Below, piece after piece: positions 2 to 3,719 of a DNA stretch of 40,130 nucleotides (positions are counted from its first letter, which is position 1; each line of letters opens with the position of its first letter). This DNA is from Candidatus Scatovivens sp. (GTDB lineage Bacteria; Bacillota; Clostridia; TANB77; CAG-508). A model generated the notes under the pieces. The model saw only the letters and a program-made list of their open reading frames with translations, searched no databases and was not told where the DNA came from. The position numbers and the translations under genes were made by a program. Where the stretch lies: NCBI GenBank assembly GCA_045646345.1, contig JAZRKN010000004.1, positions 1 to 40,130 of the forward strand. Reading direction: 5' to 3'.

Positions 2-982
2 CTCCAAAAGAGCAACATACTTCTTGTAGGTCCCACAGGTTCGGGTAAAACTTTACTTGCTCAGACCCTTGCCAAAATTATAGATGTTCCCTTTGCCATA
101 GCCGATGCAACTTCGCTTACCGAGGCAGGCTATGTTGGCGAAGATGTTGAAAATATTCTTTTAAAACTTATTCAAGCGGCTGATTTTGATATAGAAAAAG
201 CTGAAAGAGGAATAATATACATAGATGAAATAGATAAAATTGCTAGAAAATCAGAAAATCCATCAATAACAAGGGATGTAAGTGGTGAAGGTGTTCAACA
301 AGCACTGTTAAAAATAGTAGAAGGAACAGTTGCTTCTGTACCACCTCAAGGTGGAAGAAAACATCCGCACCAAGAATTTATTCAAATAGATACTTCAAAC
401 ATATTATTTATATGTGGAGGAGCTTTTGAAGGATTAGAAAATATCATTAAAGATAGAGTTGGTAAAAAGTCAATTGGATTTGGTGCAGAAATTGAAAGCA
501 AAAAAGATATTAATAAGACAGAAATATTTAAACAATTATTACCACAAGACTTATTGAAATTTGGGTTAATTCCTGAATTTGTAGGTAGATTGCCAATTGT
601 TGCAACTCTTGAAGGATTAAGCAAAGAAGCTTTAATAGATATTGTAACAAAACCAAAAAATGCATTAGTAAAACAATATAAAAAATTAGTGGAATTAGAT
701 GGTGTAGAACTTGAATTTAATCAAGATGCTTTAGAAGCAATTGTAGAAAAAGCAATTGAAAGAAATACTGGAGCAAGAGGATTACGTTCTATTATTGAAG
801 AAATTATGAGAGATATCATGTATGATATTCCTTCAAACGAAAAAATAGTAAAATGTATAATAACAAAAGAAACAGTGGTAAATAAATCTAATCCAGAAAT
901 TATTATTGATGAAAATAAAAAAAGAGAATTACCAAAAACAAAAAGAAAGGTAAAAACTACAAAAAAAGAAGAAACTGCATAA
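2..982 (+). CDS. clpX: ATP-dependent Clp protease ATP-binding subunit ClpX (5' truncated by window edge)
   Basis: Frame open from base 2: [15 protein letters not shown] (Walker A), [27 protein letters not shown] (Walker B), [23 protein letters not shown] loop, TGARGLRSI. The ORF track's 554..982 is only the C-terminal part. Confidence 0.98.
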
Positions 983-1022: not shown

Positions 1023-1175
1023 TTGAACTTATTAGTATATCAATAAAGAAAAGTAATGATTGATATAAAAAAATCTAATTTTATGACAAGAAAAATACAC
1101 AAATAAGTCATAATATTTACATGAACCTTATATATAATGATAAAACATTATTTATTTAGAAGGAGCTGAAAAAAC

Positions 1176-1499
1176 TTGAAACAGTATTTTGAAAACGAAT
1201 CGGATGTATTAAATTTAGGCATCCAAGAAAACAGCGAAAGAAATCAGCAGACTATGAAATTGTTAGCTGTCCGGAGAGATAATGACGGAGAAAAGATGTT
1301 AACAGTAGAAAGTCAAACCGAGGAAAAGGTGTTATCAAGAGAAGAAATCAGAAGAATCATGGAAGAAGAAAAGAGAATGGGACTTTCTACTCGTTGTGAA
1401 TGGTGCCCTGAAAATATTTTCTGCAGTGCATATCTGCTTCATGTGAAAAAGAAACCTGATGAAATTCCTAGATGTGATGACCTTTTTAGCGGAAGATAA
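1176..1499 (+). CDS. Small hypothetical protein with a C-terminal CX2CX5CX16C motif (putative metal/Fe-S binding); paralogue of 1654..1902
   Basis: AGAAGGAG RBS before a TTG start, TATAAT at 1133-1138, C-terminus GLSTRCEWCPENIFC...PRCDDLFSGR. Confidence 0.75.
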   Translation: MKQYFENESDVLNLGIQENSERNQQTMKLLAVRRDNDGEKMLTVESQTEEKVLSREEIRRIMEEEKRMGLSTRCEWCPENIFCSAYLLHVKKKPDEIPRCDDLFSGR

Positions 1500-1507
1500 A
1501 TGATTAT

Positions 1508-1559
1508 ATGGAAGGGGAAGCACGCATATATCTAAAGCGGAAGACCCCTTCCGTTTTTT
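1508..1559 (+). terminator. Long 3' hairpin/terminator after the first Cys-motif gene
   Basis: ATGGAAGGGG (1508-17) pairs with CCCCTTCCGT (1545-54). An alternative short stem GCGGAAG/CTTCCGT is also possible. A T tract follows. Confidence 0.7.
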
Positions 1560-1653
1560 ATTTTATTGTAAAAAAACAGCTTAAAGACACAATTTGAACA
1601 CATTTGCATGGTATAATATATAAGATTTCAATTTTAGAAAGGACTGATAGAAA

Positions 1654-1902
1654 ATGAAGAAATATATCGATAAGGCCAAAATTGCTTATCGGGAATTTCG
1701 CAAAAAATGCCGCATTATGTGGTTAAACACCAAGAAATGGTGCAAAACCCAAGTTATCAAATTCGAAAGTAAGAGAGGCTTGGCACAGCGCTGTGCTTGG
1801 TGTGATGAAAGTATTTTCTGTGAAACCTTCTGTGGTACCCCGAATAAGAAACATTTCTGGGAGCGACCCAAGCGTTGCACAGATTATCACAGCACCAGAT
1901 AA
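1654..1902 (+). CDS. Small basic hypothetical protein with a CX2CX5CX3CX14C motif; paralogue of 1176..1499
   Basis: AGAAAGGA RBS, TG-G-TATAAT at 1609-1617, C-terminus GLAQRCAWCDESIFCETFC...KRCTDYHSTR. Confidence 0.75.
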   Translation: MKKYIDKAKIAYREFRKKCRIMWLNTKKWCKTQVIKFESKRGLAQRCAWCDESIFCETFCGTPNKKHFWERPKRCTDYHSTR

Positions 1903-1911
1903 TTTTGGCAT

Positions 1912-1966
1912 AAACGACGAGGATTTCTTGCATATGATAAAGCAAGCTCCTCGTCGTTTCCTTTTT
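1912..1966 (+). terminator. Long 3' hairpin/terminator after the second Cys-motif gene
   Basis: 12-bp outer stem AAACGACGAGGA/TCCTCGTCGTTT, inner stem CTTGC/GCAAG, T-rich tail. Confidence 0.7.
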
Positions 1967-1996
1967 ATATAAAATAAAAACTCCGTAAATCGGAGT

Positions 1997-2890
1997 TTAA
2001 TTATTTACAATTAGATTAGCCATATCATCAGGTAAAGGAACTTCTAATTTTAAAAATTCTTTTGTTATGGGATGCATAAAAGATACCTTATATGCGTGCA
2101 AGGATTGCCTAGAAATTAATTTTGATGGTGAACCATATAAAGAGTCACCTAAAATGGAATGGCCTATAAATTTTGAATGTAATCGAATTTGATGAGTTCT
2201 TCCTGTTTCCAAAACAAATCTGACTAAAGATAATTTTTCTTTATATTTTTCAAATGTTTTTATTAATTCAAAATGAGTGATTGCTTTTTCACCATTTTGG
2301 TTTATTTCTCTTTCAATAATTGAATTTTCTTTTCTAGAAATAGGTGCTTCTATTGTACCAAAAGATTTATCTAAATATTCTGTTAAAATTGCTAGATATT
2401 CTTTTTTGAAGGTATTATTTTTCATTTGTCTTACTAATGATTCTTGAACATATTCATTTTTTGCAAATATAACAATACCGGATGTATCTTTGTCTAGTCT
2501 ATTAACAGGTCTTATTTTTCTTTTTAAACCAATCTTATCGAAATAAAATCTAACACCATTAGATAAACTATCTTCAAAATGTAAAATCGAAGGGTGAACT
2601 GGCATATTAGGAGCTTTGTTTATAATTAAAAGAGCATCGTCTTCAAAAATTATATGTAAATCCATTTCTTTAGGAGTGATATTTTCAGATTCCTCCTCAA
2701 AATCTAAATCAACACTAATAACATCATTTAAAGAAATCGGATGATGTACATAAGTAGAAACATCATTTAGATAAATTTGGTTTGATTTTTTTAATTTTGT
2801 TAAAAGTCTATCTGAAATGCAAAAATAATCTCTTAATACTTCTTTAATATTAGAATATTTAATTTCACAAACTTGATATTTTAATTCCAT
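1997..2890 (-). CDS. RluA/RluD-family pseudouridine synthase
   Basis: Motifs INKAPNMPVHPS, VNRLDKDTSG (catalytic Asp), LETGRTHQIRLH, ILGDSLYG, LHAYKVSFMHP. Confidence 0.95.
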   Translation of the reverse strand: MELKYQVCEIKYSNIKEVLRDYFCISDRLLTKLKKSNQIYLNDVSTYVHHPISLNDVISVDLDFEEESENITPKEMDLHIIFEDDALLIINKAPNMPVHPSILHFEDSLSNGVRFYFDKIGLKRKIRPVNRLDKDTSGIVIFAKNEYVQESLVRQMKNNTFKKEYLAILTEYLDKSFGTIEAPISRKENSIIEREINQNGEKAITHFELIKTFEKYKEKLSLVRFVLETGRTHQIRLHSKFIGHSILGDSLYGSPSKLISRQSLHAYKVSFMHPITKEFLKLEVPLPDDMANLIVNN

Positions 2891-2974: not shown

Positions 2975-3003
2975 TTGACATAAAAGTTAAATAATGCTAT
3001 AAT
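2975..3003 (+). promoter_or_regulatory. Consensus sigmaA promoter (extended -10) for 3097..3678
   Basis: TTGACA (2975-80), 17-nt spacer containing TG, TATAAT (2998-3003). Confidence 0.8.
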
Positions 3004-3096
3004 ATTATCATTAATGCAATTCCATCCTTTTGGATGTTTTTTATAAAGAACTCGTAAACCATATGATCAATCGCGAATGCGGGGAGGATTAACAGG

Positions 3097-3678
3097 ATGA
3101 ATGGTGAGTTTGTTCGAGAGATTCTATGGAGTCTTTTTTGGCCGCCGAAAGGAATTATCTACTTTGAAACACAGGTGCTAATGTGGATTTACACCCTTAT
3201 CAAAGTTTGGCTGATTCATAATGGCTACATTTTGCTGATTGCAGCAGCAATTATTTTTGCAATTAGCTGTGCCGTTTTTGGTAATACAAGAGTAAGAATA
3301 CCGCGAATGATGTTCCACAGAGTATGGAATTCTTTTCTTCGTGTATTAACCAACATTGTTTTTGCATGGTTTTTCCTTGTATATGGAGCTACTTGTGGTG
3401 AAGTGAGAGGAAACAATGGTGAGAACAATGCGACAATTTCATATTCCAGAAGAGTACATACTGGTCCGATTTGGAATGTAGTGCATAATTTTTCAAGATT
3501 ATCTCTTCATTTCCATTTAGGCCGTGGAATCTTTAGACTCTTCTATTGGGTACTTGGTTTTATTCCGGGATTCAGAAATGGATTGGAAGAAAGAACCAGA
3601 AGAACCATAGCAAGAGTCTTGGCGATGGTGGTAATATTCTGGGGAGTCTGGATGATTCCTTATGATTTAACCCACTAA
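3097..3678 (+). CDS. Hypothetical membrane protein (Trp/Arg-rich, GC-richer codon usage)
   Basis: GGAGG RBS, several hydrophobic segments, own promoter and terminator. No family recognised. Confidence 0.75.
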   Translation: MNGEFVREILWSLFWPPKGIIYFETQVLMWIYTLIKVWLIHNGYILLIAAAIIFAISCAVFGNTRVRIPRMMFHRVWNSFLRVLTNIVFAWFFLVYGATCGEVRGNNGENNATISYSRRVHTGPIWNVVHNFSRLSLHFHLGRGIFRLFYWVLGFIPGFRNGLEERTRRTIARVLAMVVIFWGVWMIPYDLTH

Positions 3679-3686
3679 GCGCATTT

Positions 3687-3719
3687 GGTCTGACAACAGC
3701 TAATGTTGTCAGGCTTTTT
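3687..3719 (+). terminator. Rho-independent terminator
   Basis: GGTCTGACAACA-gctaa-TGTTGTCAGGCT followed by TTTT. Confidence 0.8.

Follow-up and report, generated by a model that had tools for sequence, protein, structure and literature searches.

Two tandem gene units between clpX and rlu

The window, a 40,130-nucleotide stretch from the genome of a Candidatus Scatovivens species, begins within clpX. Between this gene and a convergent gene for an RluA/D-type pseudouridine synthase (rlu) lie two small open reading frames in tandem, each with its own promoter, Shine-Dalgarno sequence and 3′ hairpin (Table 1). The genome from which the window derives (G000) measures 1.79 Mb in 19 contigs, with about 27.5% GC and an estimated completeness of 96.7%.

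Table 1. Features of the clpX-rlu interval (positions in the window).
Feature	Position	Strand	Basis or remark
clpX, 3′ part (left border)	2..982	+	own hairpin 989-1020
Unit 1 operator, four 11-bp-phased repeats	1083..1126	+	repeat analysis; core C at 1087, 1098, 1109, 1120
Unit 1 -10 box, TATAAT, without canonical -35	1133..1138	+	sequence; missed by -35/-10 scan
Unit 1 Shine-Dalgarno, AGAAGGAG	1158..1165	+	sequence
ORF1, 107 aa, TTG start	1176..1499	+	acidic-N-terminus subtype; Cys codons 1395, 1404, 1422, 1473
Unit 1 terminator hairpin, then T run	1505..1562	+	conserved loop motif 1524-1538
Unit 2 operator, three 11-bp-phased repeats	1573..1605	+	repeat analysis; core C at 1577, 1588, 1599
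Unit 2 -10 box, TATAAT, preceded by TG (extended -10)	1612..1617	+	RNA contig starts at 1621
Unit 2 Shine-Dalgarno, AGAAAGGA	1636..1643	+	sequence
ORF2, 82 aa, ATG start	1654..1902	+	family-typical; polybasic helix (residues 2-40) and Cys4 domain
ORF2 invariant Cys codons	1792, 1801, 1819, 1876	+	
Unit 2 terminator hairpin	1911..1967	+	conserved loop motif 1930-1943
rlu, RluA/D-type pseudouridine synthase (right border, convergent)	1997..2890	-	hairpin 1978-1998

The original prediction described the two genes as paralogues with unrelated N-termini, and both statements held up. Local alignment of the proteins gives a score of 88, reached by none of 5000 shuffles (maximum 56); the likeness is confined to the C-terminal part, where the cysteines are spaced CX2CX5CX16C in ORF1 and CX2CX5CX18C in ORF2, and alignment of the N-termini is at chance level (2973 of 5000 shuffles). 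Duplication of a whole unit, from promoter and ribosome binding site to gene and hairpin, was likewise borne out, as phased repeats, Shine-Dalgarno sequence, ORF and 3′ hairpin are present twice. Resemblance of the upstream DNA, also claimed at the outset, stood for the TATAAT box and the Shine-Dalgarno sequence; however, likeness between the -10 box and the start codon is only modest, the score of 37 being matched by 1 of 216 control leaders for unit 1 and by 8 of 216 for unit 2. The phased upstream repeats and the 3′ hairpins are the stronger common features; the phasing of the former and the invariant loop of the latter had escaped the original prediction. Searches of G000 by tblastn and by regular expression found no third copy.

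In four metatranscriptome runs of a single study, distinct RNA contigs span positions 1340-1521 and 1621-1915, one of them derived from a related strain. These contigs come from gut metagenomes, in runs that were selected with this same stretch, and carry neither strand nor level; within those terms they support transcription of both units. Over the next 20 kb only spurious RNA pieces of 18-26 nt were found, and the missing coverage of clpX, rlu and the intergenic stretches was given no weight in ranking expression.

A family of stand-alone Cys4 proteins restricted to one genus

A search of 61 relatives with a single protein and a profile search covering the 75 genomes of the genus identified 16 copies of the gene in 13 genomes; G000, G005 and G068 each have a tandem pair. 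All 13 carriers have the gene between clpX and the convergent rlu. The family was found in none of 379 genomes of other genera, from a draw of 401 genomes of the wider taxonomic family. In larger collections, a profile search of 1.84 billion proteins returned 20 proteins of 60-141 aa and a word-based search returned 21, all with the same Cys pattern. A metagenome scan added one true locus (L034) and one chance match, and a scan of genome contigs gave an 11-residue chance match and nothing further. Single queries of viral contigs and of plasmids produced no relative.

The motif R-C-x2-C-x5-C-x15-19-R-C is invariant in 45 of 45 aligned relatives (R14, C15, C18, C24, R42 and C43), the spacer between third and fourth Cys ranging from 15 to 19 residues. 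A Glu, a Gly and a terminal Ser are nearly invariant in alignments of 39 (A6) and 45 (A8) sequences. Among eight pairs of more than 55% identity, the Cys part has a dN/dS of 0.03-0.26 in six; in the other two, synonymous sites are saturated and the ratio is not computable. Being under purifying selection, covered each by RNA contigs and endowed with Cys and Arg residues found in every relative, both ORFs are real genes.

Members are stand-alone ORFs of 75-110 aa at all 18 loci, and the unrestricted profile search cited above gave exclusively small proteins. Lengths cluster at 76-77 (13 of 39) and 88 (8 of 39) residues. Nothing in Pfam, PHROG or NCBIfam exceeds the cut-off, a profile search of PDB sequences retrieved designed helical proteins only, and Atlas matches at 0.76-0.77, to DUF6472 clusters, are leads only. 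A search of the openly accessible literature found no publication naming the family. The proposal that these genes define an undescribed family of Cys4 mini-proteins is supported: the outcomes named at the outset as refuting it did not occur, since the four Cys are conserved in all homologues aligned, no characterised family exceeds the cut-off and RNA contigs lie over both ORFs.

The only recurring library signal, a sub-threshold lead, is DUF6455 (PF20056), a stand-alone family of 85 profile positions and similar size without assigned function, to which the searched literature devotes a single table row (PMC11819568). Four of 45 members match it at E 0.0027-0.068 (13.7-18.2 bits, against a cut-off of 23.7). 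The matches are collinear over the Cys region, residues 31-73 of P0010 aligning to profile positions 34-77 and residues 11-73 of P0011 to positions 14-76. Neither window protein matches DUF6455, and no protein exceeds the cut-off in the 75 genomes of the genus.

The Cys4 site

The four invariant Cys likely bind one metal centre. As to its nature we lean slightly toward [4Fe-4S], at about even chances and with zinc close behind, because the ligands come in the same order as in the Aux II site of SPASM domains. In anSME this site is formed by C317, C320, C326 and C348 (PMC5715301); there, as here, a CX2CX5C triad is completed by a Cys further C-terminal. The distal spacer is 21 residues in Aux II versus 15-19 in the family. 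SPASM spacing had been recognised in ORF2, which does read CX2CX5CX3CX14C, but the additional CX3C cysteine occurs in just 7 of 45 members and so does not extend to the family. The seven-Cys SPASM motif, CX9-15GX4CXnCX2CX5CX3CXnC (PMC5715301), goes unmatched in proteins in which only four Cys are invariant. A radical SAM domain, Aux I ligands and GX4C are all missing, the family proteins possess a polybasic helix, and there is no Pfam or PDB sequence match; membership of SPASM was rejected on these grounds.

Two other ligand sets differ in the position of the fourth Cys. Like the family, WhiB-like proteins, which hold a [4Fe-4S] cluster, are small and stand-alone, with CX2CX5C inside a four-Cys set. 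The WhiB1 ligands are C9, C37, C40 and C46, followed by a G(V/I)WGG turn (PMC6282962), and the NBP35 motif is CX13CX2CX5C (PMC8514734). In both the fourth Cys is N-terminal, the reverse of the family order; A6 and A8 contain neither an invariant upstream Cys nor the G(V/I)WGG turn, and a WhiB-like assignment was rejected.

In the iron-staple nucleases Cas4 and AddB a PD-(D/E)XK nuclease domain separates the first Cys from the second. They have the CX2CX5C triad in common with the family; in the family, however, the fourth ligand lies downstream rather than upstream, and Pfam, NCBIfam and PHROG scans detect no nuclease domain in these proteins of 75-110 aa, so that membership was rejected here as well.

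Structure prediction yielded a model for the N-terminal helix but was too weak to speak on the fold of the Cys domain (pLDDT 54-65 and 61-74, both apo). With these weak models as queries, fold searches of the whole proteins retrieved generic helices only (Z up to 4.3), the low-confidence apo model of the Cys domain alone had no match at Z 2 or more, and Foldseek matched no PDB structure.

The simplest function would be that of a plain metal or Fe-S buffer or carrier (a store, a sacrificial oxidant sink or a one-cluster electron carrier) acting with no regulatory partner. A stand-alone Cys4 protein would suit such a role, as would the extra, non-conserved Cys that are frequent among the members and the existence in G000 of a second small GC-rich, zinc-ribbon-like gene with a similar repeat site (see below). 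Yet the conserved residues that are not ligands (Glu, Gly, two Arg, terminal Ser) point to a binding surface, and none of the conserved co-regulated genes described below has a metal or redox role, the enzymes among their products belonging to sugar-phosphate and envelope metabolism. Such a role is the most doubtful of those considered. Whatever its function, the stand-alone CX2CX5CX15-19C knot offers a small and readily produced test object for an Aux II-like ligand set outside radical SAM enzymes.

Charge of the N-terminus and history of the gene

Variable N-termini had been proposed as a general property of the proteins. This was not supported: in 38 of the 39 rows of A6 the 33 residues preceding the conserved Glu have a net charge of +6 to +14, and the acidic type is a single clade. 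The basic segment is predicted to form one helix at residues 2-40 (pLDDT 84-90). Hydrophobic periodicity, averaged over the family, peaks at 95-100 and 160 degrees, and this, along with the length clusters, suggests that the helix may be built on an 11-residue repeat. Only 8 of 46 sequences have a hydrophobic moment above that of their shuffled versions at p 0.05 or below, and ORF2 is not one of them (p 0.24); membrane binding is therefore not singled out from binding to nucleic acid or another polyanion.

The acidic N-terminus of ORF1 is real, being represented by P0012, P0032-P0038 and L034. In a tree of the Cys domain (45 sequences, 54 columns, with many open forks), first-position copies form one branch (99/99), inside which the seven acidic copies form another (95/80); G000, G005 and G068 group together on the ClpX tree (84/81). 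In the acidic copy the N-terminus has a dN/dS of 0.54 against 0.08 for its own Cys part. The nested branches point to one tandem duplication followed by a single switch to the acidic type under relaxed selection. An old frameshift may lie behind the switch. Comparison at the DNA level with two basic first copies gave no clear case for such an origin, and other frames read by eye were equally unconvincing; the acidic type is open and conserved across several sequences of 84, 105 and 107 aa.

The gene was also said to have been inserted behind clpX. As a statement of recent arrival this does not hold, for the gene is syntenic in 13 genomes and its synonymous divergence resembles that of its neighbours. 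Values are similar to those of clpX and rlu in close pairs and are saturated in distant pairs, and a recent horizontal insert was rejected. Among the best 30 of 65 clpX loci matching that of G000, 13 contain the family gene, 10 show an empty interval of 67-287 bp from clpX to rlu, 2 have a different gene there, and 5 are otherwise arranged. About seven changes on the ClpX tree are needed to explain presence and absence. By this comparison the family gene is old and dispensable, and no fresh insert.

Two occupants of the same site may be mentioned. In one genome (G021, locus L049) the empty clpX-rlu site is filled by a perfect-looking, MITE-like inverted repeat of about 200 nt. In a sister group (L061-L065) the gene after clpX, in the place of the family gene, is one we take to be nitroreductase-like.

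Phased repeats upstream of the -10 box

A TATAAT hexamer lies 34-50 nt ahead of the start codon in 16 of 18 units (the exceptions are G024 and G061), without a good -35 box. In its place are 11-bp direct repeats, the last of which ends 10 nt before TATAAT. A C is found at -13, -24, -35 and -46 from the hexamer in 14, 14, 10 and 7 of the 16 promoters, the repeats being missing from two (G005 unit 2 and G030). The E. coli pho boxes show the same 10-nt distance between their last repeat and the -10 box.

A matrix was built from 10 promoters of other genomes, leaving out G005 unit 2, G030, G024, G061 and L034. Ranked by this matrix, the best of 1425 upstream regions of G000 were those of unit 1 (20.5), fbp, the fructose-1,6-bisphosphatase gene (17.9), and unit 2 (17.3), the next scoring 7.2. 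In an off-phase control none of 656 regions reached 8 at any of 11 shifts. With two repeats and a looser -10 box, the first four places went to unit 2, to fbp, to an operon encoding a sensor kinase and an OmpR-family regulator, and to the rpiB operon; unit 1 came seventh. As the training promoters are homologous to those of the window, only the fbp, rpiB and regulator operon sites count as independent matches.

All three sites are kept in relatives: fbp and rpiB in 5 of 5 each, and the regulator operon in 24 of 30 loci at a score of at least 10 (2.3% of 1605 background regions do so) or in 27 of 30 by eye, with unchanged spacing to a -10-like hexamer. In the G000 stretch C17:29905-34207 (L174), the gene next after rpiB encodes a family 4 glycosyltransferase (GT4) of MraY/TagO type, and sua5 comes after that. 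Sites at further carbon genes (pflB 1 of 5, pgi 2 of 5, tal 0 of 2, pck 0 of 1) are mostly unconserved in relatives, so a wider carbon regulon was rejected and the physiology of the regulon rests on few genes. Beside the direct repeats upstream of pflB (G000:C5, L130) there is an 18-bp near-palindrome which we take to resemble a Rex site.

The regulator gene occupies C5:50914-51594 of G000 and, together with the kinase gene, C5:50914-53127 (L097, L099); a similar repeat site lies directly behind the kinase gene. The kinase has a large extracytoplasmic part followed by HAMP, HisKA and HATPase domains. G000 encodes two OmpR-family regulators, neither passing a named cut-off: the one preceded by the site falls under that of PhoB, and the other is WalR-like. 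The former occurs with its kinase in 72 of 75 genomes of the genus, the two-repeat site being strongly conserved before the operon. Since only 13 of the 75 genomes carry the family, the mini-protein is dispensable for the regulon.

PhoB-type regulators are described as binding 11-nt direct repeats head-to-tail (PMC4415409). Our promoters have in-phase 11-nt direct repeats adjoining the -10 box, as expected of a PhoB/OmpR-type operator, and share with PHO-box promoters the replacement of the -35 box by such arrays, a TCAY-like core and a site on the regulator's own operon. The repeats are thus likely read by an OmpR-family response regulator. A classical Pho regulon, in which pstSCAB-phoU would stand under the same box, was rejected, because neither PhoU nor a Na/Pi cotransporter was found in the 96.7% complete genome and the PstS-like gene is not among the site-bearing regions. 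That gene stands alone at C15:31800-32978.

The family could be real and its regulatory link misassigned, the repeats being read by another factor, be it a repressor responding to sugar-phosphate or the WalR-like regulator. Direct repeats of 11 bp are typical of WalR sites as well, the second OmpR-family regulator of G000 has YycF as its best match (258 bits, under the cut-off), and a metabolic regulator common to fbp and rpiB is conceivable. Against this, the site recurs before the first regulator's own operon at constant distance from the -10-like hexamer, and the G000 regions with scores of at least 8 do not include the WalR-like operon. We consider a misassigned link quite unlikely. With the site-bearing regulator as reader, the family genes, fbp, rpiB with the glycosyltransferase gene and the regulator itself would make a candidate minimal two-component regulon in a lineage with only two OmpR-family regulators.

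A similar repeat site is carried by a small GC-rich, zinc-ribbon-like ORF of G000 with two CXXC motifs and its own terminator (C7:50103-50342; L134:204-443). This ORF has relatives in seven other genomes of the genus at E below 1e-11, and the site scores 12-15 in the 3 loci examined of 8.

A terminator hairpin with an invariant loop

A long hairpin with a T run behind it closes 16 of the 18 units. The stem varies and covaries; the loop keeps the form Y-GC-A(T/A/G)AT-N1-2-(C/A)TAAA-GC-R. In 14 sequences, paired cells amount to 85.7%, compared with 68.5 ± 2.3% in shuffles (0 of 500 as high) and 36-50% in slid controls, a contrast flattered by the derivation of the structure from the same 14 sequences. 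Rfam 15 holds no match to the hairpin; two chance matches (E 2.3 and 3) fell elsewhere. A covariance model run on the 75 genomes gave 14 strong matches of at least 46.9 bits, all behind family genes, the next match scoring 32.3; this model too was built from those 14 hairpins, and 75 candidates were scored per genome. In G000 the loop pattern has 21 matches, and a strong hairpin of this form exists at the two units only. Given the covarying stem, the fixed loop, the lack of an Rfam match and the confinement to family genes, this is a predicted family-specific recognition loop with a putative reader.

That reader might be the protein itself. The basic helix and a zinc knot with invariant Arg could recognise RNA or coat DNA or RNA under stress, the simplest target being the loop of the gene's own terminator, with termination or mRNA stability under autoregulation. 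Gene and loop are tightly coupled, the helix is very basic, and two invariant Arg adjoin Cys. The coupling is qualified by the origin of the model just mentioned; G029 and G087 have a plain terminator without the loop and no model match anywhere, yet their proteins retain all invariant residues, and the acidic copy retains its loop. A nucleic-acid binder, with or without this target, seems to us rather unlikely.

The structured 3′ element also invites comparison with type I toxins: a cationic growth-arrest peptide could be checked post-transcriptionally through the hairpin, and an acidic paralogue could neutralise it. Small size, positive charge, patchy distribution within the clade, a private promoter and terminator and the pairing of an acidic with a basic copy in G000 and L034 agree with this. 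Type I systems combine a short hydrophobic toxin with a convergent antisense RNA. However, the proteins have no hydrophobic transmembrane stretch, a lone basic copy is the rule (10 of the 13 carrier genomes), and both copies are basic in G005 and G068. Pairing of the loop with its own leader shows no cognate advantage (mean -3.1 versus -3.5 kcal/mol for non-cognate leaders), and a scan for antisense promoters found none convincing above the level of shuffled sequences. The one query of viral contigs gave no relative, and there is no PHROG family. A toxin is, on balance, unlikely.

A proposed envelope-response protein

The anatomy of the genes is firm; their function we infer. The reading that we prefer, tentatively and with rather less than even confidence, is of a two-component-activated metalloprotein at the membrane surface that is tied to envelope and sugar-phosphate supply, with the terminator loop adding post-transcriptional control and the acidic copy unanchored. 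In response to a signal from the envelope or from nutrients, the sensor kinase would phosphorylate the regulator, which would then bind the repeats in tandem, replacing the -35 box and activating the family genes, and would co-activate enzymes feeding sugar-phosphate into cell-wall polymers. In known pathways the products of fbp, rpiB and GT4 genes supply sugar precursors of the cell wall, and the same is presumed for G000.

The polybasic helix of the typical copy would tether the metal domain to the anionic inner surface of the membrane. There the Cys4 knot could act as an interaction module responsive to redox state or metal, offering its conserved, metal-loaded surface to a partner and tuning the response, possibly through feedback on the kinase. 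Another factor would read the terminator loop and set the end or the stability of the mRNA. After the tandem duplication, an acidic helix under relaxed selection would have replaced the basic one of the first copy, which might then act as an unanchored variant or decoy. The comparison would be with MgrB and SafA, products of small genes activated by two-component systems, with feedback possible; they are short transmembrane peptides, whereas the family protein has a Cys4 site and no transmembrane stretch.

In its most specific form the proposal would describe a self-contained cassette: a two-component-activated Fe-S mini-protein at the membrane surface that combines envelope feedback with reading of its own terminator, accompanied by a charge-swapped antagonist paralogue and belonging to a scattered class of genes with long-maintained high GC3 in a genome where ordinary genes have about 0.1. 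That all of this should apply together is improbable. From sequence alone, the locus has yielded a predicted new family of small metalloproteins and a new RNA element in an uncultured gut lineage; its narrow range (13 of 75 genomes, one genus) limits the general impact.

GC content at third codon positions

Family genes differ from their neighbours in base composition. GC3 is 0.31-0.59 in all 18 copies, compared with 0.06-0.16 in the adjacent genes, and the contrast persists across species whose synonymous sites are saturated. Such a maintained difference is a separate puzzle concerning mutation or selection in AT-rich genomes.

The median GC3 of G000 is 0.13, and about 100 of 1611 crudely called ORFs have a GC3 of 0.30-0.65. 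These are scattered singly and are mostly orphans with their own Shine-Dalgarno sequence. One more self-contained GC-rich unit lies in the window at 2975-3715. It begins with a perfect TTGACA-17-TATAAT promoter (2975-3003) and a leader of about 90 nt with a small hairpin, and ends with its own terminator (3687-3715); its ORF (3097-3678) encodes a membrane-type orphan of 193 aa.
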